The notes under the pieces were generated by a model. It worked only from the letters and a program-made list of their open reading frames with translations, was not told the origin of the DNA and did not search any database. Of a stretch of DNA of 64,000 bases, positions 1 through 54,299 are shown in pieces (the stretch's first letter is position 1; each line of letters starts with the position of its first letter). This DNA is from an uncultured Actinomycetes bacterium (lineage in GTDB: Bacteria; Actinomycetota; Thermoleophilia; Solirubrobacterales; 70-9). A program made the translations under genes and the position numbers. The stretch spans positions 166,872 through 230,871 of the forward strand of contig CAWJJU010000002.1 of NCBI GenBank assembly GCA_963843315.1, in the 5' to 3' direction.

Positions 1-794
1 ATCTGCTTGCGAAACGCCTCGAGGTCGGTGATGTCGGCCTCGTCGTCGTGGGTGACGTGCGGGATGTAGACCCAGTTGCGCGCGAGGTTGGGGCCGCTGA
101 TGCGCTTGATGCGAGAGAGCGGGACGCGCTCGACCTCGCCGTACTTGGAGAAGTCGATGGCGGGCCACGGTGCGATCTCCAGGCCGGGGAGCCCGGCGCC
201 ACCGGCCGCGGGCGCGCCGCCGGCCTGGACGGCCTTCTTGACGTCCTCGCGGGTGATTCGCCCCTTGCGCCCGGAGCCCGTGACGCCGGAGAGGTCGACG
301 TCCATCTCGCGGGCCAGACGGCGGACGGACGGCGAGGCGTAGATCGAGTCTGAGGCCGCGTCGCCTGTGGGGTCAGACCCCGGTTGCGTGGGGCCGTCAC
401 CCTGGGGGTCAGGCACCTGAGTTGACTCGGGCTCCGGCGTTTCGGAAGCGAGGGTGCCTGACCCCTTTGCATTCGCGTAATCCTCATCCCCTGCCTGCTC
501 CTCGGCCTCGACCGCGGCGAACGCCACCTCGGCCTGGGTCGAGACCGCCCCGTCCTCGGAGCGGTCGAGCACCAGCAGGGCGTCGCCCTGCGAGACCTTG
601 TCGCCGACCGCCACCTTCAGCTCGACGATCGTGCCCGCGTAGGGCGAGGGCACGTCCATCGTCGCCTTGTCGGACTCGAGCGTGACCAGCGGGGCGTCGG
701 CTGAGACCTCCTCGCCGGGGCTCACCAGCACCTCGATGACGGGGACCTCCTCGAAGTCGCCGATGTCGGGAACGTCTACCTGGTACTCGCTCAT
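1..794 (-). CDS. aceF: 2-oxo acid dehydrogenase E2 (dihydrolipoamide acyltransferase); only the 5' part is present because the gene runs off the window
   Basis: My own translation from the ATG at 794 gives MSEYQVDVPDIGDFEEVPVIEVLV..LESDKATMDVPSPYAGTIVELKV (lipoyl domain), then a Pro/Gly/Asp linker, then IYASPSVRRLAREMDVDLSGVTGSGRKGRITREDV (E3-binding domain), then the start of the catalytic domain. The start forms an ATGA overlap with the aceE stop. It is absent from the ORF track because it is open at the window edge. Confidence 0.85.
   Translation of the reverse strand, partial: MSEYQVDVPDIGDFEEVPVIEVLVSPGEEVSADAPLVTLESDKATMDVPSPYAGTIVELKVAVGDKVSQGDALLVLDRSEDGAVSTQAEVAFAAVEAEEQAGDEDYANAKGSGTLASETPEPESTQVPDPQGDGPTQPGSDPTGDAASDSIYASPSVRRLAREMDVDLSGVTGSGRKGRITREDVKKAVQAGGAPAAGGAGLPGLEIAPWPAIDFSKYGEVERVPLSRIKRISGPNLARNWVYIPHVTHDDEADITDLEAFRKQ
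370..382. repeat. 13-bp palindrome GGGGTCAGACCCC inside the E2 linker coding region
   Basis: Exact copy of the dispersed palindrome family. It is read as Gly-Ser-Asp-Pro in the E2 frame. Confidence 0.9.
406..466. repeat. Inverted pair GGGGTCAGGCACC (406-418) and GGTGCCTGACCCC (454-466), variants of the palindrome family
   Basis: The two 13-mers are exact reverse complements separated by 35 nt, and both lie inside the E2 linker coding region. Confidence 0.85.
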
Positions 795-4227: not shown

Positions 4228-5727
4228 CTACGGATCGAGGCCGCGCCAGGGCGCGGCGTGCACCCTGCGATGCCCGCGCTTCCCGCCCAACCGGATCCGG
4301 CGGACGACCGAGTTGTTGGCGCGCGAGGCCTCGGTGAGCAGGCCCAGCGGGTTCACCTCCACCTTGATCAGGTAGCGGCCGTTCGGGACGTGGGTGATGT
4401 CGAAGGCCTGCCCGGCGACGATCTGCGTGTAGGTGTCGCCCCAGCCCACCGGCAGCAGCTCGCGGATCCACAGCGCGGTCGAGTCGCCGCATGAGCTGCC
4501 GAGGAAGGCTGGCTCGGTCATCCAGTCGGCGCCGGGCAGCCGCAGATCCACCAGGTCGGTCGGCGCGACGCAGAACGACTGCTTGCGGCTGGCGACGACC
4601 TTGCTGCCGTTGCGATGGCGAAGCGTGTAGCGGGCGAACTGCTCGACGTGCCAGTGGTGGTGGCCGTGGCGGCGATCGAACTCGAAGTGCCCGGCCGGGC
4701 GCCGGCCGATCACGTGCCCGCGCGAATTGTGGAAGTACTCGAACGCCCGCATGCGATCGTGGCCCGGCCGGCGAAAGCCCTCGAGGTCGAGGGGCGCCGG
4801 CCCTGCGTTCCACTCCGTCGCCGCGAACGTGAGCAGGTCGTGCCCGCGCTGCCTCTCCGCGTCGACGTTCCAGGCCGGCAGCGCCGCCAGGTCGGGCCGA
4901 AAGCGCCGCGGCGGGCGGTCCACCTTCGGCACGCCGGCCGGCACGGAGGCCGCTGCCGGGGTCGTGGCCTTCCCGCCGCCGCCGATGCCACGGCCGCCTC
5001 CCCGGACATACGCGCGCAGGTGGACCGACGCCGCAGCGCGGGAGATGCCGAACAGGCGGCGATATGGCTTCTCGATCCGAGCCGTGACGTTGTAGCGGCC
5101 CTTGTCGATCTTCACGCGAGGGTCGGGGCCGCCGAAGTCGAGCACCGGCGCAGCCCAGTCGCGGTCGATCCCCCAGACCAGGCCCTTGACGAACGGCGAG
5201 GTCGAGCTGCAGGTGGGCGGAAAGCGGGAGTTCTCGGGGCCGTGGCCGCCCAGCCGCTGGCGGGCGCCCGACGGGCAGAACGGCATCTCGGCGGCCGCCA
5301 CGAGCTTGCCGCGCCGGTGGAAGCGGACGGAGACGAAGTCGCGCAGTCGTGGGAAGGGAGCGAGCATCTGCCGAGGGGGACCCAGGCCGCGGCCCTGGAA
5401 GCCGCCGCCCTGGACGGAGCGCGAGGCCACCAGCCGCCGGGGGATCGGCCGGATCACCCTTCCGCTCGCGGGCCTCACCTGGGCGGCTCGGAAGCCGTGG
5501 GAATAGCGCTGACGCCAGGCGTCGATGCGAAGCGGGGCGCCCTTGCTGCCCACCTCCAGGCCCAGCTGCGTGAGCGCGACCGAGTGCGAGAACGCGCGCA
5601 CGCCGATGCGCGCCGTGGGCGCGATCAGGCTCAGCCGCGGCGAGCGGGCCTGGGCGACGGCCGGAGCGAGCACCGCAACGGCGAGGGCGGCGAGCGCAAA
5701 GGCGGTGAGCGTGGGGTTACGGCGCAT
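4228..5727 (-). CDS. Secreted lysyl oxidase (LOX)-family copper amine oxidase homologue
   Basis: Signal peptide MRRNPTLTAFALAALAVAVLAPAVAQA from the ATG at 5727. The C-terminal region is ..FEFDRRHGHHHWHVEQFARYTLR..SFCVAPTD..GWGDTYTQIVAGQAFDITHVPNGRYLIKVEVNPLGLLTEASRANNSVVRRIRL. It parallels the animal LOX catalytic domain ([74 protein letters not shown]). Confidence 0.75.
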   Translation of the reverse strand: MRRNPTLTAFALAALAVAVLAPAVAQARSPRLSLIAPTARIGVRAFSHSVALTQLGLEVGSKGAPLRIDAWRQRYSHGFRAAQVRPASGRVIRPIPRRLVASRSVQGGGFQGRGLGPPRQMLAPFPRLRDFVSVRFHRRGKLVAAAEMPFCPSGARQRLGGHGPENSRFPPTCSSTSPFVKGLVWGIDRDWAAPVLDFGGPDPRVKIDKGRYNVTARIEKPYRRLFGISRAAASVHLRAYVRGGGRGIGGGGKATTPAAASVPAGVPKVDRPPRRFRPDLAALPAWNVDAERQRGHDLLTFAATEWNAGPAPLDLEGFRRPGHDRMRAFEYFHNSRGHVIGRRPAGHFEFDRRHGHHHWHVEQFARYTLRHRNGSKVVASRKQSFCVAPTDLVDLRLPGADWMTEPAFLGSSCGDSTALWIRELLPVGWGDTYTQIVAGQAFDITHVPNGRYLIKVEVNPLGLLTEASRANNSVVRRIRLGGKRGHRRVHAAPWRGLDP

Positions 5728-5779
5728 GGGCAGGCGGACGGTAGAGCTACGGGCGGGCGCCCGCACTGTCACGCCCCGG

Positions 5780-8771: not shown

Positions 8772-8803
8772 GCCGGAATTATCGCGCCCACTACCATGGA
8801 TCA

Positions 8804-8905
8804 CGCAACGGGAGCCCGCGTACGAGCATGGGCTGAGAGGGCGGCAACGCGGCCGCCGACCGTCAGAACCTGATCCGGGTCATGCCGGCGCAGGGATTGG
8901 TGGCC
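8804..8905 (+). promoter_or_regulatory. TPP (THI-box) riboswitch upstream of thiO-thiS-thiG
   Basis: Contains ..GGGCTGAGAGGGC.. and ..CAGAACCTGATCCGGGTCATGCCGGCGCAGGGA.., matching the conserved CUGAGA and ACCUGAUCUGGxUAAUxCCAGCGUAGGGA cores. It sits just upstream of the AAGGAG ribosome-binding site and the thiO ATG. The boundaries are approximate. Confidence 0.85.
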
Positions 8906-8934
8906 AACGCGGCCCTCCCGGTGACAAGGAGAGC

Positions 8935-12791: not shown

Positions 12792-12820
12792 CCCCCGCCC
12801 ACCTAGCGCCCCCCCGCCCG

Positions 12821-12868
12821 ATGAACGTCCCTCACTGCCCTGCATAGGCATCAGTGCGGGACGTTCAT
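12821..12868 (+). repeat. 48-nt conserved stem-loop element, copy 1
   Basis: The sequence is ATGAACGTCCCTCACTGCCCTGCATAGGCATCAGTGCGGGACGTTCAT, with 11-bp terminal arms ATGAACGTCCC/GGGACGTTCAT. It lies between convergent genes. A second copy is at 43548-43595. Confidence 0.9.
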
Positions 12869-12915
12869 GTGGTGCGGCCATTCTTCCCCGAGCCGCCCTG
12901 CTCGTCAGCCGGCGG

Positions 12916-16117: not shown

Positions 16118-16189
16118 GCCCCCGTAGCTCAGTGGTAGAGCAGTCGGCTTTTAACCGATCGCGCGCCAGTTCGATCCTGGCCGGGGGCA
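16118..16189 (+). tRNA. tRNA-Lys (anticodon UUU)
   Basis: Folded by hand: acceptor GCCCCCG/CGGGGGC, D arm GCTC/GAGC, anticodon stem GTCGG/CCGAT with loop CTTTTAA, T arm GCCAG/CTGGC with loop TTCGATC. It is 72 nt and CCA is not encoded. Confidence 0.93.
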
Positions 16190-17687: not shown

Positions 17688-19231
17688 AGCGCCTCGTCCG
17701 CACCGCAGCCCTCGCCGCCGCGCTGACCGCGGCAGCCCTCGCCGCGCCGCCTGCTGGCGGTCAGACCCCGTCCGCCCAGGCCAAGCCCAAGGGCTGCGCC
17801 TCCACCAACGCCAGGACCCACCTCCCCCCGATCAAGGCCCTCGACCCCAAGCCGGGAGCCCCACGCGTCTTCGCGATGCAGTTCAAGCAGGAGCTGCGAA
17901 ACGTCACCACCTACGCGACCTTCCGGCACAAGATCGACTGCATGATCCGCGAGTACGTCGTGCCGGACATGGCGAAGCACCGCCCGAACGTGGTCGTCTT
18001 CAACGAGGACGTCGGCCTGATGACCCTCGGCACCGGCACCCGCGGCGACGCGGCCAGGTCGATCTTCCAGGACCCGAGCACCGTGCCCGGGTGCACCCCC
18101 GCCGGCGCTCCCTGCGGAGCCATCGGCGCCCTGGTCGCAATCGGCGGCGCCTACGCCCCGCAGGTGGCCGAGTACCAGTCCCGCTTCCCCGGGATGGGCC
18201 CGTTCGTCTCCGACTTCATCGGTCCCACCGACACCCTCGCCCGCGGCTGGATGCAGACCTTCTCCAACATGGCCCGCCGCTACGGCATCTACGTCGCCGG
18301 CTCTTCCACCCAGGCGCCCTTCAAGGAGTCCCGCAAGCCCGCCGACATCGCCCTCTTCGCCGACCCCGACCTGCCCAAACAGCCCAAGTCCGTATACGTC
18401 GCCACCCAGGGCGCGATCTACAACACGGCCTTCCTCTGGGGCCCGAAGACGATCCGCCCGCACGCCCCCAAGCCGCTGCGAAACGTGGTGCTGGAGAACC
18501 GGAAGGTGCCCGTGACCCCCATCGAGACCGCCCTCGGCGTCTCCAACGGCCCAGCGAGCGGCAGGGCCGCGAAGGACAACCTGCGCCCCTTCCACCTCCC
18601 GGGCACGAAGGCGCGGCTCGGCTTCGCCACCAGCCTGCCCGCATTCCAGTTCGGCAACGACCTCGGCGACCCGAAACCCGCCCACCCCTGCGCCGACGTC
18701 ACCGTCAGCTACATGAACTGCCTGTCGAGCCTGGGAACCAACGTCGTCCTCCAGGACGAGGCCAACCCGGGCCGCTGGGCGGCCAACGGCGGCGGCGGCT
18801 TCTGGCAGCCCCTGGAATGGATGGGCTCGACCTGGCGCTCGGTAGCGGATCGCTCGGTGGGGTTCGACTACAACGTCACGCCGATGATGACCGGCAACCT
18901 CGCCGATCTCCCCTTCGACGGCCAGAGCGCGATCACCCAGCGCGGCGGCGCCCGAACCGCCGGCTGCCACTACGCCGGCAACCGCCGCCTGCACCCCACC
19001 GCACCGAATCCCGATCCCGCCTACGCAAAGCCCTACGCGGGGGCGAAGCGCCAGTTCCTCGCCCTCGCCCCCTGGGCCACCGCGAACGCGCCGCGACCGC
19101 AGCTACGCGCCACCGGCGCCAAGCTCGACTCGGGGTCAGGAGATCCGCTGGAGAACGACTACGTCGAGACGGCGCTCGTCGCGGACCTGCCCTTCCCGGT
19201 CGACCGCTCGCGCCCGGGCTGCGCGCGCTAG
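17615..19231 (+). CDS. Secreted carbon-nitrogen hydrolase (nitrilase-superfamily)-like protein; start uncertain
   Basis: Signal-like KRLVRTAALAAALTAAALAAPPAGG, then ..RPNVVVFNEDVGL.. (possible catalytic Glu region). The only ATG/GTG/TTG start in frame is the GTG at 17615, which overlaps the amine oxidase gene by 73 nt. A CTG at 17683 or a frame error is also possible. Confidence 0.5.
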   Translation: MERIHGRRPAVGRAGRRGSPVEALKRLVRTAALAAALTAAALAAPPAGGQTPSAQAKPKGCASTNARTHLPPIKALDPKPGAPRVFAMQFKQELRNVTTYATFRHKIDCMIREYVVPDMAKHRPNVVVFNEDVGLMTLGTGTRGDAARSIFQDPSTVPGCTPAGAPCGAIGALVAIGGAYAPQVAEYQSRFPGMGPFVSDFIGPTDTLARGWMQTFSNMARRYGIYVAGSSTQAPFKESRKPADIALFADPDLPKQPKSVYVATQGAIYNTAFLWGPKTIRPHAPKPLRNVVLENRKVPVTPIETALGVSNGPASGRAAKDNLRPFHLPGTKARLGFATSLPAFQFGNDLGDPKPAHPCADVTVSYMNCLSSLGTNVVLQDEANPGRWAANGGGGFWQPLEWMGSTWRSVADRSVGFDYNVTPMMTGNLADLPFDGQSAITQRGGARTAGCHYAGNRRLHPTAPNPDPAYAKPYAGAKRQFLALAPWATANAPRPQLRATGAKLDSGSGDPLENDYVETALVADLPFPVDRSRPGCAR

Positions 19232-21535: not shown

Positions 21536-22131
21536 GAGACGAGTCTATGCGCCGCGGTGGACTCGCCGCGGGCAATCGCGCGGACGGCCTCGGGCAGCAG
21601 CTCGTGCTCGACAGCGTGGATCTGCCGCTCCAGCTCCTCGCGGTCGCGACCCGCGGGCACCGGGACCTCTCGCTGCAACAGCGCGGGCCCGGTGTCGACT
21701 CCCTCGTCGACCCAATGCACCGTCACCCCGGTCACGGAAACCCCGGCCTCCAGCGCCTGCCCGACCGCGTCGAGCCCCGGGAAGTCGGGCAGGAGCGCCG
21801 GGTGGACGTTGATCACCCGGTCGCGAAACCTGGAGATGAAGGAGGCGGAGAGGATCTGCATGTAGCCGGCAAGCACGACCAGGTCGGCCGCCAGCGACTC
21901 CAGCCAGTCGGCGATGGCCGCGTCGCGCGCCTCGCGGTCAGGGAAGTCGGCGCGCGGAAAGGTCCGGGTGGGCACTCCGGCGCCGGCGGCCCGCTGCAGG
22001 GCGCGCGCGGCGGGCTTGTCGGAGCCCACGCCCACGACCTCGATGCCGTCGCGCCCGTGAACCGTGTCGAGGATCGCCTGGAGGTTGGTGCCTGACCCCG
22101 AGGCCAGGACCGCGACCCGAAACGAGCTCAC
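21532..22131 (-). CDS. purN: Phosphoribosylglycinamide formyltransferase
   Basis: Starts at the GTG at 22131: VSSFRVAVLASGSGTNLQAI..VVLAGYMQIL..INVHPALLP..GVTVHWVDEGVDTG. GTGA overlap with the recQ stop. Confidence 0.9.
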   Translation of the reverse strand: MSSFRVAVLASGSGTNLQAILDTVHGRDGIEVVGVGSDKPAARALQRAAGAGVPTRTFPRADFPDREARDAAIADWLESLAADLVVLAGYMQILSASFISRFRDRVINVHPALLPDFPGLDAVGQALEAGVSVTGVTVHWVDEGVDTGPALLQREVPVPAGRDREELERQIHAVEHELLPEAVRAIARGESTAAHRLVS

Positions 22132-23678
22132 GCCGCTTCCGCCGGCGCCAGCTTGGGGAACTTGCCTCCGGTGGAGCGCAGCCGTCCCGCCGCGATCAGG
22201 TCGTCGACCTCGGCGAGCACCTCGGCGTTGGAGTGGTGGTGGTAGTCGCCGTAGCCGGGGAGCTCGTCGTAGCCGTACCTGGCCACCACCTTCGAGCGCC
22301 CGCCGCGGAGGATCTCCACGCAGCGGGTGCGCCCGACGGCGGGCGAGGCGCTCTCCACGACCGTGAGGATGGCGTCGCGCACCGAGCCCGACTCGCTCGA
22401 GCCGGGCGCCGCGGCCCTCACCGGCGCGCCGCCGATCGCCAGCGGGCCGTCGCACACGTCGCAGCACCGCCCCTCCGCGCGCGGCGCGGTGCGGTCGCCG
22501 AAGTGGCGCAGGATCGACTCGCGGCGGCAGCGCTCGCCCTCCACGTAGCCCCACACCGATCGGTACTCGCCCCAGCGCGCACGCTTTGCGTCCTCGTCGT
22601 TGAGCTGGTTGATGAAGTAGACGTGCAGCCGCTTGTCGCGCTTGTCGTCGAGCAGCACGCAGCGGGCGGGCAGGCCGTCGCGGCCCGCCCTGCCGGCCTC
22701 CTGGTAGTAGGCCTCCAGCGACGAGGGGACCGCGACGTGCAGCACGGTGCGCACGTTTGCCTTGTCGACGCCCATGCCGAACGCGTTGGTCGCGACCACG
22801 ATGGGAGCCTCGCCGCTCATGAACAGGCGCTGCGCCTCGGCGCGAGGCTCGCGGTCCATGCCCGCGTGGTAGGCCGGCACCGGCACTCCCAGCTGCCGCC
22901 TCAACCACTGCGCGGTCTCGTCGGTCTTCTTGCGCGTGCCGGCGTAGACGATCGCGGGACGCGCCTCGGGGTCTCCCAGCAGCGCCAGTGCGGCCCGCCT
23001 GCGCGCCTCGTCGGAGCGCGCCGGGACGACGTCGTAGGACAGGTTCGGGCGCTCGAAGCCGGTGGCGATCCGCAGCGGATCGCGCAGGCCGAGCCGCCGG
23101 GCGACGTCGAGCGCGACCTGCGTGGTCGCGGTCGCAGTGGCCGCCAGCACCGAGCGTGCGCCCACTGCCCTCGCGACATCGCCCAGTCGCATGTAGTCGG
23201 GGCGGAAGTCGTGGCCCCACTGGCTGATGCAGTGCGCCTCGTCGACGACGAAGAGGCCGACATTCGCCTCCGCCAGCCGCTCGGTGAACCCCGGAACGCC
23301 GAAGCGCTCCGGCGCCACGTAGAGCATCCGGCACTCGCCGGCCAGCGCCCGCTCGAGAGAGGCCCGGTTGTCGGCGGGGTCGCGCTGGGCGTTGATCATC
23401 TCCGCCGCTCCTCCCAGGCTCTGAACCTGGTCGCTCATCAGCGCCACCAGAGGCGACACCACCACCGCCAGCCTCGAGTCCATGAGCGCCGGCAGCTGGT
23501 AGCAGAGCGACTTGCCGGCTCCCGTCGGCATCACGACGAGGACGTCGCGCCCGGCGATGGCCGCCTCGACGGCCTCGCGCTGACCCGGCCTGAAGGCCGG
23601 GTGGCCGAAGTGGGTCTTCAGCGCGGCGGCCGGGTCGGCGACTGTGGGGTCAGACCCCGAGGATGGAGGTTGCAACAT
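22128..23678 (-). CDS. recQ: RecQ-family ATP-dependent DNA helicase
   Basis: Starts at the ATG at 23678: MLQPPSSGSDPTVADPAAALKTHFGHPAFRPGQREA..VMPTGAGKSLCYQLPA..VVDEAHCISQWGHDFRPDY..YAGTRKK..ATNAFGMGVDK..YYQEAGRAGRDG, followed by zinc-binding and WH regions. Confidence 0.9.
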   Translation of the reverse strand: MLQPPSSGSDPTVADPAAALKTHFGHPAFRPGQREAVEAAIAGRDVLVVMPTGAGKSLCYQLPALMDSRLAVVVSPLVALMSDQVQSLGGAAEMINAQRDPADNRASLERALAGECRMLYVAPERFGVPGFTERLAEANVGLFVVDEAHCISQWGHDFRPDYMRLGDVARAVGARSVLAATATATTQVALDVARRLGLRDPLRIATGFERPNLSYDVVPARSDEARRRAALALLGDPEARPAIVYAGTRKKTDETAQWLRRQLGVPVPAYHAGMDREPRAEAQRLFMSGEAPIVVATNAFGMGVDKANVRTVLHVAVPSSLEAYYQEAGRAGRDGLPARCVLLDDKRDKRLHVYFINQLNDEDAKRARWGEYRSVWGYVEGERCRRESILRHFGDRTAPRAEGRCCDVCDGPLAIGGAPVRAAAPGSSESGSVRDAILTVVESASPAVGRTRCVEILRGGRSKVVARYGYDELPGYGDYHHHSNAEVLAEVDDLIAAGRLRSTGGKFPKLAPAEAA

Positions 23679-23707
23679 GATCGTTCGCGGTTGAGGGGTC
23701 AGACCCC
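23646..23707. repeat. Pair of exact GGGGTCAGACCCC palindromes (23646-23658 and 23695-23707)
   Basis: Two identical 13-mers with a 36-nt spacer bracket the recQ start codon. The first is read as GSDP in RecQ codons 8-11. Confidence 0.9.
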
Positions 23708-23734
23708 GGTGGCGATTGCTCGAACGCCATCTAT

Positions 23735-28538: not shown

Positions 28539-30655
28539 GCCACCACGACCGCCTCCATGCGCTCGCCGAGCGAGCGCCAGGCGGCCTCGGCGTCGGCCAC
28601 GGAGACGTCCAGCGACATGGCGCCCGCCCGGATCGCAATCGTCTCGCCCCCGGCGGCCCCGATCACGGCGAACTCGACACCCTCGGCGCCGGCCCGGGCG
28701 GCCAGGCGCCCGATCGCGGCGGGCTCACCGGCCAGCAGCACTCCCGCGGGCCCCTCGCCGAAGACCGCGTCCTCGCCGCCGCCGACCTCGACGCTCGCGC
28801 CCACGCGGCCGGCGATCGCCATCTCGGCGAGCGCACAGGCCAGGCCGCCGTCGCTGACGTCGTGCGCGGCGCCCACCTCACCGGCCCGCACGGCCTCGCG
28901 GACGAAGCCGAGGGCGCGGCGCGCGGCCTGGACGTCGACCTCGGGCAATCCGGCCGACAGCTCGCCGCGCTGCTTGGTCAGCTCCGACCCGGCCGCCGAG
29001 GGCGCGAAGGGGCCCGCGAGGGCGATCGCGTCGCCCTCGCGCAGGGCGGTGCCCGGAGCGCCGGCGGGATCCGGCAGCTCGCCGGCCATGCCGACCACCG
29101 GGGTGGGATAGATCGGGCCGGACTCGGTTTCGTTGTACAGGGAGACGTTGCCGCCCACCACCGGCACGCCGAGCGCTCGGCAGGCGTCGGCCAGGCCCCT
29201 CACGGACTGCGAGAGCTGCCAGGCGACGTGGGGCTTCTCGGGGTTGCCGAAGTTCAGGCAGTTGGTCAGGCCGAGCGGCTCGGCGCCGGCGCAGGCGAGG
29301 TTCGCCGCGCACTCCAGCACCGCCTCCACCGCCCCGCGGTAGGGATCGCAGGCGACGCGGCGGCCGTTGCCGTCGATTGCCAGCGCGACGCCCACCCCGG
29401 ACTCGTGGATATCGAGCACCGCCGCGTCGGCGGCCTCGGGACGGCGCAGGGTGCGCGAGCCCACGATCGAGTCGTACTGCTCGAAGGCCCAGCGCTTGCT
29501 CGCGATGTTGGGCGAGCCGAGCAGCGCCAGCAGGGTCTCCTCAGGGGAGGCGTCGGCCGCGAGGGTCGCGTCGTTGCCGTACAGCCAGCCGTCGGGCTCG
29601 GCGGGGTCGAGGTCGTACAGCGGGCACTCGTCGACCAGCGCCTTCACCGGCACCTCGCCCACCAGCTCCGAGCCGTCGAGCACGCGGATCGTCTCGCCCT
29701 CGGTGATCTGGCCGATCACCGCGGCGCTCGTCTGCCAGCGCTCGCAGACGGCGAGAACCTCGTCGACCCGCGACGGCTCGACCACCGCGAGCATCCGCTC
29801 CTGCGACTCGGACACCATCACCTCGAACGGCTCGAGGTCGGGGTTTCGAAGCGGGACCGCCGAAACGTCGATGTCGAGGCCGACCTCGCCCTTCGAGGCC
29901 ATCTCCCCCGCCGACGAGGTGAGCCCGGCCGCACCCAGGTCCTGAAGCGAGACCAGCAGGTCGCCCGCCAGCAGCTCCAGGCAGCACTCGAGCAGCTTGT
30001 GCTCCTCGAAGGGGTCGCCGATCTGCACGGTCGGACGCTTGGCGTCGCCCTCCTCCAGCTCGGCCGAGGCCAGCACCGAGGCGCCGCCGATGCCGTCGCG
30101 CCCGGTCGAGGCACCGAACAGGACCAGCGCGTTGCCGGGGCCGGCGGCCGCCGAGCGGATCATCTCGTCGGCCCTCGCCAGACCCGCGCACATGGCGTTG
30201 ACCAGGCAGTTCTGCTCGTACGGCGCCTCGAAGGCCACCTCGCCGCCCACCGTGGGGACGCCGATCGAGTTGCCGTAGTGCCCGATGCCGGCCACCACGT
30301 GGTCGAAGAGATAGCGCGAGCGCTCCGAGCTGAGCTCGCCGAAGCGCAGCGAGTCGAGCACCGCGATGGGTCGCGCGCCCACCGCGAAGACGTCGCGCAG
30401 GATCCCGCCGACGCCGGTGGCGGCGCCCTGGAAGGGCTCGACGGCGCTGGGGTGGTTGTGCGACTCGACCTTGAAGGCCAGGGCCCAGCCGCCCGGCAGG
30501 CTGACGGCCCCGGCGTTCTCGCCCGGGCCCATCACCACGCGCTCGCCCTCGGTGGGCAGCTGGCCCAGGAGCTTTCGCGAGTGCTTGTAGGCGCAGTGCT
30601 CGGACCACAGCAGCGAGAACATCGCCAGCTCGACCCCGTTGGGCTCGCGGCCCAT
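28535..30655 (-). CDS. purL: Phosphoribosylformylglycinamidine synthase II; the true start is probably upstream (near 30740) across a frame break
   Basis: Contains ..ELAMFSLLWSEHCAYKHSRK..ENAG..FKVESHNHPSAVEPFQGAATGVGG.. The homologous N-terminus (TPHRELGLTDREYELIVEH) continues upstream of the ATG at 30655 with no ATG/GTG/TTG before an in-frame TGA. An ATG at 30740 lies in another frame. Confidence 0.9.
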   Translation of the reverse strand: MGREPNGVELAMFSLLWSEHCAYKHSRKLLGQLPTEGERVVMGPGENAGAVSLPGGWALAFKVESHNHPSAVEPFQGAATGVGGILRDVFAVGARPIAVLDSLRFGELSSERSRYLFDHVVAGIGHYGNSIGVPTVGGEVAFEAPYEQNCLVNAMCAGLARADEMIRSAAAGPGNALVLFGASTGRDGIGGASVLASAELEEGDAKRPTVQIGDPFEEHKLLECCLELLAGDLLVSLQDLGAAGLTSSAGEMASKGEVGLDIDVSAVPLRNPDLEPFEVMVSESQERMLAVVEPSRVDEVLAVCERWQTSAAVIGQITEGETIRVLDGSELVGEVPVKALVDECPLYDLDPAEPDGWLYGNDATLAADASPEETLLALLGSPNIASKRWAFEQYDSIVGSRTLRRPEAADAAVLDIHESGVGVALAIDGNGRRVACDPYRGAVEAVLECAANLACAGAEPLGLTNCLNFGNPEKPHVAWQLSQSVRGLADACRALGVPVVGGNVSLYNETESGPIYPTPVVGMAGELPDPAGAPGTALREGDAIALAGPFAPSAAGSELTKQRGELSAGLPEVDVQAARRALGFVREAVRAGEVGAAHDVSDGGLACALAEMAIAGRVGASVEVGGGEDAVFGEGPAGVLLAGEPAAIGRLAARAGAEGVEFAVIGAAGGETIAIRAGAMSLDVSVADAEAAWRSLGERMEAVVVA

Positions 30656-30707
30656 GTGCTCGACGATCAGCTCGTACTCGCGATCGGTCAGCCCAAGCTC
30701 CCGATGC

Positions 30708-30754
30708 GGGGTCAGACCCCTTGAGTCGCCTCCGACTCATGGGGTCATGACCCC
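30708..30754. repeat. Palindrome pair GGGGTCAGACCCC (30708-30720) and GGGGTCATGACCCC (30741-30754)
   Basis: Located at the GT4/purL junction. The second palindrome contains the glycosyltransferase stop codon. The spacer carries the hairpin GAGTCGcctcCGACTC. Confidence 0.85.
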
Positions 30755-49687: not shown

Positions 49688-49712
49688 GAAAATCTAAGTG
49701 ACTTCCTATCAA

Positions 49713-49725
49713 GGGGTCTGACCCC
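49713..49725. repeat. 13-bp palindrome GGGGTCTGACCCC upstream of the clpB promoter
   Basis: Exact family member, followed by a partial second copy (TCTGACCC). Confidence 0.85.
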
Positions 49726-51748: not shown

Positions 51749-52301
51749 CTACTCCGCGACGACGACCCGAGCCGGGCGGATCACCTGCCCGTCGAGCCGG
51801 TAGCCGAGCTCAAGCGTCTCGATCACCGAGCCCGAGCCGGCGTCCTCCTCGGCGCGGGTGGCCAGGGCCTCGTGGAAGTTCGGGTCGAAGGCCTCGCCCC
51901 TGGGGTCGTAGGCCTCGATGCCGGCGCGCTTCAGGGCCGAGACGAGGTCTGCTCGAACCAGCTCGACGCCCTTGCGCAGCGGGTCGTCCGCGGTCGCGGC
52001 CGCCAGGGCGCGATCGAGGTTGTCGATCACGGGGATCAGGTCGCGGGCGAGGCCGGCCTTGGCGCGCTTCTCCGCGTCGGCTGCCTCGCCGGCCGCGCGC
52101 TTGCGGAAGTTCTCGAAGTCCGCGCGGGCACGCTGCGCGAGCTCGAGGTACTCGTCGCGCTCGCGAGTGGCGTCGGCGAGCAGCGCATCCAGGTCGCTCT
52201 CGACGGCGGCGCTGTCGGCACTGGGGTCAGACCCCTCGTCGCTCTCGCCCCGGACAGCGTCCGGTGTGCGGGGGTCTGACCCCTGGGTCGCTGACCCCTC
52301 G

Positions 52302-52309: not shown

Positions 52310-54198
<1,889 letters not shown>

Positions 54199-54299
54199 TC
54201 AGTTTCTCCTTCTAATGTTCAAGCTCTGGAAATCTAAGCGGGACCGTAGCAGATATATGTATGCCGGGCAAGGGCTTCAGCCCTGAGGGAAAGCCAGAT

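Follow-up and report, generated by a model that had tools for sequence, protein, structure and literature searches.

A 64-kb window of a Solirubrobacterales genome (contig CAWJJU010000002.1; by the window we mean this whole stretch of 64,000 nucleotides) carries a dispersed 13-bp palindrome, GGGGTCWGACCCC, in seven exact copies, most of which lie in inverted pairs predicted to fold as long hairpins. We read these 13-mers, with a probability of about 70%, as a short non-autonomous hairpin repeat of the repetitive extragenic palindrome (REP) or REPIN (REP doublet forming hairpin) kind, equivalent to the "TIR repeats" (terminal inverted repeats) of a TIRYT-type (terminal inverted repeats associated with tyrosine transposases) Y1/HUH transposase. 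Membership of the window repeat in the TIRYT system is probable but unproven. The initial annotation had offered two readings, an element resembling a REP or a miniature inverted-repeat transposable element (MITE), and a family of binding sites for a dimeric protein. The first gains support from the hairpin pairs, from presence and absence among relatives, from tandem arrays and from the 13-mer found at genes of the REP-associated tyrosine transposase (RAYT) type elsewhere, whereas complementary arms that are not palindromes, arrays of up to 14 copies and unrelated genes in many phyla speak against the second. The kind of element is familiar, the host is undescribed for it and its locations are unusual.

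Copies of the repeat in the window

Exact copies of the 13-mer start at 369, 23646, 23695, 30708, 49713, 52223 and 52271, whereas ~0.01 copies are expected in the window from dinucleotide shuffles and 0.0007-0.03 from Markov models of order 1-5 with the copies masked or unmasked; G+C is ~70% along the whole length. The initial annotation had counted the same seven and had supposed, without computing it, that this was far above chance, which the expectation bears out; its first coordinate was one base off (the true copy is 369-381), as was that of its inverted variant pair (given as 406/454, in truth 405-417/453-465). Besides the exact 13-mers there are a 14-mer, GGGGTCATGACCCC, placed correctly from the start at 30741-30754, the inverted pair GGGGTCAGGCACC/GGTGCCTGACCCC, and a one-mismatch copy at 17757-17769, previously described as a partial copy near 17759. 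The octamer GGGGTCAG is present in every exact copy and is kept in hybrid arms too. The gene contexts are as first described (E2 linker, recQ 5' end, glycosyltransferase (GT)/purL junction, region upstream of clpB, grpE N-terminus), and the host genes of the 13-mer copies are all on the minus strand. The copies and elements are as follows:

369..381, gene on the minus strand: exact 13-mer GGGGTCAGACCCC, apparently solo (23 nt to the next arm), in the E2 acyltransferase linker, reading G-S-D-P
405..465: 61-bp hairpin element in the E2 linker, arms GGGGTCAGGCACC (405-417) and GGTGCCTGACCCC (453-465), outer ends GGGGTCAG...CTGACCCC
17757..17769: one-mismatch copy GCGGTCAGACCCC in the low-complexity N-terminal region of a plus-strand open reading frame (ORF), reading G-Q-T-P
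23646..23707: pair of exact 13-mers 49 bp apart, spanning the called recQ start codon (ATG 23678 in the spacer)
30708..30754: 47-bp element between a glycosyltransferase gene and purL, with the 13-mer at 30708-20, an inner hairpin with a 7-bp stem at 30722-39 and the 14-mer GGGGTCATGACCCC at 30741-54
49713..49725: exact 13-mer without a partner, in the 112-bp spacer that separates clpB from a small DUF4267-like gene
52223..52283: 61-bp hairpin element in the disordered N-terminal region of GrpE, two exact 13-mers 48 bp apart, the first with an A centre and the second with a T centre
52284..52297: degenerate copy TGGGTCGCTGACCCC adjoining the grpE element, its core split by 2 nt, of uncertain membership

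The copy at 17757-17769 is possibly a decayed family member, its membership likewise uncertain. A two-mismatch match at 22087 was discarded, as it is a coincidental resemblance within the conserved PurN motif GSGTNLQ and not a repeat copy.

Within genes, the three E2 copies (the gene encodes the pyruvate dehydrogenase E2) at 369, 405 and 453 read GSDP, VPDP and GSGT, respectively, the copy at 23646 supplies codons 8-11 of the called RecQ, and the copies at 52223 and 52271 both read G-S-D-P in the N-terminus of GrpE, which belongs to an operon of the actinobacterial dnaK-grpE-dnaJ-hspR type. The earlier observation that the four exact copies inside called coding sequence (one in E2, one in recQ, two in grpE) all read Gly-Ser-Asp-Pro (GSDP) thus holds, and it is the one point in favour of regarding the DNA pattern as a by-product of protein-level selection for this peptide in disordered regions. 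We give that explanation almost no credence, as it is effectively refuted by the non-coding copies: those at 49713, 23695 and 30708 are non-coding or in another frame (30708 as GLTP). GSDP is moreover nearly absent from homologues (RecQ 2/120, ClpB 0/120, E2 1/120, the window's own proteins included), the one other RecQ homologue that has GSDP encodes it by a different codon string, GGGATCCGACCCC, and the codon choice among the window copies is invariant. Because TCA and TCT both encode Ser, the GSDP frame yields GSDP in either orientation, and because an inverted pair spaced by a multiple of three has a TGA in one other frame, a shared frame is only a ~1-in-2 event per pair; the common GSDP frame is not significant by itself. 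Frame statistics from a crude gene caller based on G+C at third codon positions (GC3) were dropped, the caller having chosen antisense ORFs.

Inverted pairs form one hairpin with compensatory changes

The arms of the window pairs lie 33-49 bp apart, and the predicted fold of each pair is one long hairpin, its 13-bp outer stem enclosing a smaller inner one. Predicted energies range from -24.8 to -42.8 kcal/mol (z -2.1 to -6.9): -38 kcal/mol (z -4.4) for the E2 element 405/453, -24.8 kcal/mol (z -2.1) for the recQ pair 23646/23695, -39.9 kcal/mol (z -6.9) for the GT/purL element 30708/30741 and -42.8 kcal/mol (z -3.4) for the grpE element 52223/52271. In the E2 element the arms at 405 and 453 are perfect mutual reverse complements, neither of which is a palindrome. 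A relative whose ClpB is 89% identical (L215) has an orthologous grpE pair, GGTGTCAGGCACC...GGTGCCTGACCCC, also with 48-bp spacing and a predicted fold of -51 kcal/mol. Compared with the pair in the window, GGGGTCAGACCCC...GGGGTCTGACCCC, it exhibits two compensatory double substitutions (A-T to G-C and C-G to A-T) and one unpaired change, and the spacers are identical at 18/35 positions. The L215 changes keep the arm-to-arm pairing and abolish each arm's own palindromy. This speaks for a structure that a single strand forms, and against a DNA-binding protein that acts as a homodimer. The constant part of the arms is their outer eight bases, GGGGTCAG...CTGACCCC.

This bears directly on the possibility that the 13-mers are operators of a homodimeric DNA-binding protein, be it a regulon or a family of nucleoid-organising sites. 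A perfect odd-centred palindrome of operator-like size would suit such a protein, as would the copy 25 nt upstream of the clpB -35 element, beside half of an HspR-type operator, and a tandem pair upstream of dnaK in another relative (L217). However, arms lacking self-palindromy are retained as mutual complements, arrays reach 14 copies in 2.3 kb (L048), most window copies are in or at the edge of the coding sequences of unrelated genes, the same promoters in relatives have no copies and the identical 13-mer occurs in at least nine phyla, so we consider operators very improbable.

Presence and absence among close relatives

We compared the window with syntenic loci from eight relatives (L215-L224, ~172 kb; ClpB 84-89% and RecQ 78-85% identical). 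The ClpB, RecQ and E2 homologues are from Solirubrobacterales wherever they are named. The relatives' ~172 kb holds only two exact copies, the tandem pair upstream of dnaK in L217. Such a comparison of orthologous loci had been proposed with the initial annotation, and it uncovered presence/absence differences at the recQ junction, in the E2 linker and in the region upstream of clpB. For example, the purF/recQ junction is conserved with relatives up to CTTAGATA and then holds ~78 extra nt (about 23646-23725) containing the 13-mer pair, a stretch missing from the closest orthologous junctions, those of L219, L220 and L221; RecQ homology resumes at 23645, the ancestral codon 2, directly at the 13-mer edge. 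The copy at 23695 is located between the purF stop and the recQ ATG (23678), and the present recQ start codon lies inside the element spacer. The E2 linker triple is absent from all 119 E2 homologues. PurL homology begins at 30706, again at a 13-mer edge, where the 30708/30741 element fills the gap between the family 4 glycosyltransferase (GT4) gene and purL, with the GT stop codon inside the 14-mer. At clpB, relatives have a conserved inverted repeat, ATCTAAG...CTTAGAT, whose left half is missing in the window; the 13-mer 49713, which is 25 nt upstream of the -35 element, abuts the place of that half. Absence in relatives together with homology that starts at the 13-mer edges shows the family to be a recent, lineage-specific expansion in this Solirubrobacterales genome. 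When copy locations are set against orthologues, the recQ, purL and clpB copies fall in former intergenic spacers and the E2 and grpE copies are truly intragenic; several of the "coding" copies in fact occupy what were tiny intergenic spacers. A further 80 GrpE loci from soil metagenomes (369 kb) gave 0 copies, although the best GrpE is 64% identical and the N-termini are unalignable, so these serve as a negative control only.

At recQ, an older ATG at 23730 opens a 26-codon ORF (MAFEQSPPGSDPSTANDHVATSILGV*) that overlaps the called recQ start and ends in the second 13-mer; it has GSDP in the first arm and TGA in the second because the arms are spaced 49 and not 48 nt apart, and with 48-nt spacing it would be a RecQ N-terminus carrying two GSDP motifs. 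At purL (30655-30740), the conserved N-terminus HRELGLTD is upstream of the first canonical start codon, and the in-frame stretch has only CTG; the only ATG (30740) reads MSRRRLKGSDP and is out of frame by one base. This could be due to an indel at the C-run of the 13-mer, to initiation from a non-canonical codon or to truncation of the protein, which would then begin at 30655.

The same comparisons can be read as evidence that the hairpins are selected cis-elements (mRNA stabilisers, terminators, insulators or attenuators of translation initiation), the link to a transposase being incidental or historical. Between the window and L215 compensatory change has preserved the stem although the spacers have diverged by ~50%, copies stand at start codons and gene junctions, copies in other taxa lie just after stop codons with A-run/T-run flanks like bidirectional terminators, and exapted roles are documented for the REPs of Escherichia coli (reviewed in PMC3733652). 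Yet the same genes in most close relatives do without the element, no T-runs follow the window copies, the host genes are functionally unrelated, and compensatory change is equally expected from a transposase or from hairpin-templated repair. Cis-elements selected in their own right are therefore, in our view, an unlikely account, if less so than operators.

A relative sharing DNA that is 80-84% identical to the window (L030) has four 13-mers repeated every 33 bp and, after them, four copies of another palindrome, GGTGCCTGGCACC. The latter copies (5687-5770, period ~23 bp) stand directly after the 13-mer array, and the hybrid arms of the window and L215 contain their half-site.

The same 13-mer across bacteria

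A scan for 13-mer pairs, with one genome per species, recovered at least 120 loci in ~100 genomes, which among the loci listed represent at least nine phyla. Actinobacterial hosts include Solirubrobacteraceae (with 13-mer-rich metagenome-assembled genomes such as SMAG_U6491, MFD06742.bin.2.117 and MFD01275.bin.2.67), Thermoleophilia, Gaiellales, Acidimicrobiales and Coriobacteriia; the others include Acidobacteriota, Planctomycetota, Gemmatimonadota, Omnitrophota, Spirochaetota, Bacteroidales, alpha-, beta- and gamma-Proteobacteria and low-G+C Bacillota. Copies in those genomes are mostly intergenic, often right after stop codons, and the core is frequently lengthened to a longer palindrome by lineage-specific flanks. 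They are arranged as inverted doublets with a palindromic spacer or as tandem arrays of up to 14 copies, as in L048, where 14 lie within 2.3 kb. With one pair counted per locus in 114 loci, 72 were inverted and 42 direct, and among the inverted pairs the A...T arrangement, with GGGGTCAG outermost, outnumbered T...A by 47 to 25 (p=0.013). A universal arm spacing was ruled out, as it varies from 17 to 58 bp across taxa.

A further possibility is that the copies are an artefact of long-read assembly or polishing. The window does contain probable indels or frameshifts (in dnaK at ~52968, and frame breaks beside two elements), but 13-mer pairs are also present in short-read assemblies (MEGAHIT and SPAdes), in genomes of isolates and in the finished Rhodospirillum rubrum ATCC 11170 plasmid, and we regard an artefact as about as improbable as selection for the peptide.

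Paired scans of viral contigs found nine loci for the GGGGTCAG-type core and four for a GGGGACAG-type core, GGGGACWGTCCCC, and the four other G4...C4 palindromes used as controls gave 0, 0, 0 and 1 loci; the GGGGACAG-type control palindrome also fits the GGGGWSAS motif discussed below. In viral contigs L130-L133, GGGGACWGTCCCC forms paired and tandem repeats, and GGGGACAGA... also ends inverted repeats around a RAYT-like gene in the Pseudomonas aeruginosa plasmid L229. GGGGACWGTCCCC looks like a sister repeat family. In Rectinema subterraneum (L012, 1604-7041), seven 13-mers occur in 8 kb, roughly one to each intergenic region. Every copy sits within an A/T-rich unit, aatttaagaaaaGGGGTCTGACCCCgagatttaaaaa, and between the copies there is an ISL3-type transposase gene.

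Association with Y1/HUH transposase genes

Among 120 loci of 8 kb chosen for their 13-mer pairs only, four contain a Y1_Tnp gene (searched in ORFs between clusters, by tblastn and with hidden Markov models (HMMs)), which is far above chance for a gene that is about single-copy; in three of them (L080, L115 and L078) the 13-mers are its direct flanks. In Marinobacter (L080) and Halomonas getboli (L115) a gene of ~210 aa is directly flanked by 13-mers and matches Pfam Y1_Tnp PF01797 (E 1.7e-15 and 1.4e-8, respectively), its best NCBIfam match being the REP-associated tyrosine transposase (REP_Tyr_transpos; 76 and 64 bits). In a Comamonadaceae metagenome-assembled genome (L078) a 13-mer pair stands 42 bp upstream of the Y1_Tnp gene, and in Oribacterium (L072) the gene has no adjacent 13-mer. 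The genes flanked by 13-mers have the Y1 core together with the NH[TVF]H and YI[ED]LNP motifs.

The converse search started from the protein: plasmids were searched with the L078 transposase, and seven loci were picked by protein similarity alone. On the R. rubrum ATCC 11170 plasmid, exact 13-mers lie 49 bp upstream (A centre) and 4 bp downstream (T centre) of the gene (transposase WP_011387744). Four other plasmid loci have inverted ends starting GGGGTCAGAG, GGGTCAGAG or GGGGACAGA: those in Skermanella, Iodobacter and Pseudoalteromonas start (G)GGGTCAGAG and those of the P. aeruginosa plasmid gene start GGGGACAGA. The remaining two of the seven showed no flanking ends of the 13-mer type.

Several observations weigh against the transposase-linked hairpin repeat that we favour. 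We detected no Y1/HUH transposase gene in the window, which covers 64 kb of a 735-kb contig, or in the ~172 kb of relatives, nor, by HMM, in the ~45 actinobacterial 13-mer loci. The NCBIfam scores of 64-76 bits are below the curated cut-off of 80, and the transposases found here gave no match, at E up to 5, to the C-terminal helix-turn-helix that is reported to characterise TIRYT subclass 2.1. At the level of the repeat, no GTAG- or CGTC-type tag marks the hairpin foot, as the flanks of the seven window copies share no tetranucleotide; the spacers of the window pairs are mutually unrelated, although typical REPIN copies share the whole unit; some copies are solo; direct pairs make up 37% of those in the cross-phylum scan; and the 13-mer is a perfect palindrome of 13 bp, compared with 20-40 bp in classical REPs. 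To our knowledge, transposition of TIRYT-type repeats has never been demonstrated. Because no transposase gene lies in the window or in the actinobacterial loci read, the spacers are unrelated and the GTAG tag is missing, the repeat is filed as working like a REPIN/TIR repeat. Two further searches within the window came back empty: no target-site duplications were seen at element edges, and the pattern GGGGWSAS-N10-40-STSWCCCC gave 0 matches, its gap range being shorter than the actual 45-nt gaps.

Relation to known repeat families

The closest published system is TIRYT. Di Nocera, De Gregorio & Rocco (2013, PMC3733652) described RAYT-like TIRYT tyrosine transposase genes flanked by inverted repeats that share GGGGWSAS, with moderately abundant TIR repeat families occurring as singles, dimers and clusters, some of them self-complementary and closely spaced; REPs were also noted inside genes, more often near N-termini (PMC3733652). 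TIRYT corresponds to TnpA_REP subclass 2.1, found in ~15% of strains (Quentin et al. 2018, PMC6006769), whose subgroup 2.1.2 is patchy across phyla and beside whose genes an automatic search found no REPs (PMC6006769). The motif for the inverted repeats is also written GGGG[AT][CG]A[CG] (PMC3733652, PMC6006769). The initial annotation had not recognised the 13-mer as a described element, which stands insofar as the exact 13-mer is absent from the searchable literature in DNA, RNA and degenerate forms, but its outer bases GGGGTCAG do fit GGGGWSAS and GGGG[AT][CG]A[CG]. The repeat further resembles TIR repeats in occurring as singles, dimers and clusters, in being patchy across phyla, and in that the 13-mer or GGGG[TA]CAGA ends are found at Y1/HUH genes (Marinobacter, Halomonas, Comamonadaceae, R. 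rubrum, Iodobacter, Skermanella, P. aeruginosa). It differs in that no TIRYT gene was seen in the window or in the actinobacterial loci read and in that the published families are mostly extragenic, with neither this 13-mer nor Actinomycetota hosts reported.

With the REP, bacterial interspersed mosaic element (BIME) and REPIN families and their RAYTs in E. coli and Pseudomonas fluorescens, the 13-mer shares short dispersed palindromes, inverted doublets that form long hairpins, tandem clusters, placement between genes of one operon and lineage-specific copy number. The REPtron layout, in which a transposase gene stands between its own repeats, is seen for the 13-mer in other genomes. Apart from its length and perfect symmetry, it differs from REPs in having no GTAG or GTGG tag, in the unrelated doublet spacers in the window and in that half of the copies are in called coding sequence.

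Rickettsia palindromic elements (RPE) were reportedly described by Ogata et al. in 2000 as palindromic repeats inserted in frame in protein-coding genes. They are tolerated in surface or disordered segments, where they add a peptide to housekeeping proteins, they measure 100-150 bp, are confined to Rickettsia, have conserved internal sequence and form CGTC/GTAG-tagged families; we know of no transposase for them. PMC3733652 mentions these elements as well. The 13-mer elements are alike in lying in frame within housekeeping genes (E2 and grpE only) and different in size (13-61 bp in the window) and in having no internal conservation, and we do not class them as RPE. HIP1 (GCGATCGC) of cyanobacteria is an 8-bp palindrome, evenly spread in thousands of copies and linked to methylation. 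It too is a very short exact palindrome, strongly over-represented in and outside genes, but it has no inverted doublets, hairpin pairs or transposase link. A classical MITE derived from a DDE transposase was rejected, there being no duplications at the edges and no relation between the spacers of different copies, as were Tn3 ends (GGGGTCTGAC...), which have only ten bases in common with the repeat and whose inner transposase-binding part is absent.

The HspR-associated inverted repeat (HAIR) operators of HspR, like some 13-mers, lie close to the promoters of clpB and dnaK in such operons and are inverted repeats, but the operator-like repeat here is ATCTAAG-N-CTTAGAT (with CTTAGATTT) and not the 13-mer, which also occurs in unrelated genes. 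CTTAGATTT is found exactly twice in the window (49690-49698 and 54230-54238), just upstream of the clpB and dnaK promoters, and in relatives it is the right half of ATCTAAG-N-CTTAGAT, which is probably the HspR operator of the clade. The inner hairpin at 30721-30740 (CTTGAGT...ACTCA) was considered as a HAIR/HspR operator and set aside, as it has the wrong spacing and its sequence recurs within the repeat unit in L030 and L071.

Proposed mechanism and consequences

Under the REPIN/TIR-repeat reading, the functional unit would be the inverted pair with outer ends GGGGTCAG...CTGACCCC, usually enclosing a second small stem. A transposase of this class would be encoded in the host genome, presumably by a single gene elsewhere in it. 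If it works like the enzymes of IS200/IS605 and RAYT, its substrate would be the folded single-stranded DNA, which it would recognise, cut and insert again with no duplication of the target. Such mobilisation of single-stranded DNA is established for IS200/IS605 and proposed for RAYT. The family would then have multiplied recently in this genome, with copies persisting where harm was small. Those in operon spacers (purF/recQ, GT/purL and upstream of clpB) would have run over former start and stop codons, for which they now provide replacements, and those in disordered segments (the E2 linker and the GrpE N-terminus) would be tolerated, one frame giving Gly-Ser-Asp-Pro in either orientation. 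Hairpins of -25 to -43 kcal/mol would probably affect the translation or mRNA stability of the genes they have invaded.

A bolder combination of claims would make this the first REPIN-like population in Thermoleophilia (Actinomycetota) and the family that ties TIRYT/subclass 2.1 to a defined mobile substrate (GGGGTCAG...CTGACCCC, in at least nine phyla), exapted here to donate start and stop codons and a GSDP peptide, with stems kept by compensatory change to tune the translation of recQ, purL and grpE. Taken as a whole we hold this to be doubtful, though slightly less so than the reading as selected cis-elements.

If the favoured reading is correct, the 13-mer hairpin is an exact candidate substrate for a domesticated-looking class of HUH transposases present in ~15% of sequenced strains, and REP/REPIN-type elements would extend to a deep actinobacterial lineage. 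For annotation it matters that the elements occupy the 5' ends of essential genes and here set where recQ and purL start. They would also explain recurrent GSDP-type peptides in disordered segments, and whether close relatives carry them or not could be used for strain typing. The interest of the family lies in its host lineage, in the remodelling of gene starts and in a cross-phylum core that is a testable candidate TIRYT substrate.

Other features of the window

The minus-strand dnaK is split into two ORFs, 54198-52966 and 52970-52302. The break, at ~52968, coincides with one extra G relative to orthologues in ttcccGacccgc (conserved IPT[RK]KSE motif; window 52940-53000); either this essential chaperone gene is truly frameshifted or the assembly has an indel here. 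Rfam matched only a TPP riboswitch (8798-8913, 61 bits) and a tRNA gene (16118-16189) in the window. The longest inverted repeat, at 12812-12877, has 26-nt arms that are 81% complementary and 14 nt apart; it stands between convergent ORFs and is probably a terminator unrelated to the 13-mer.

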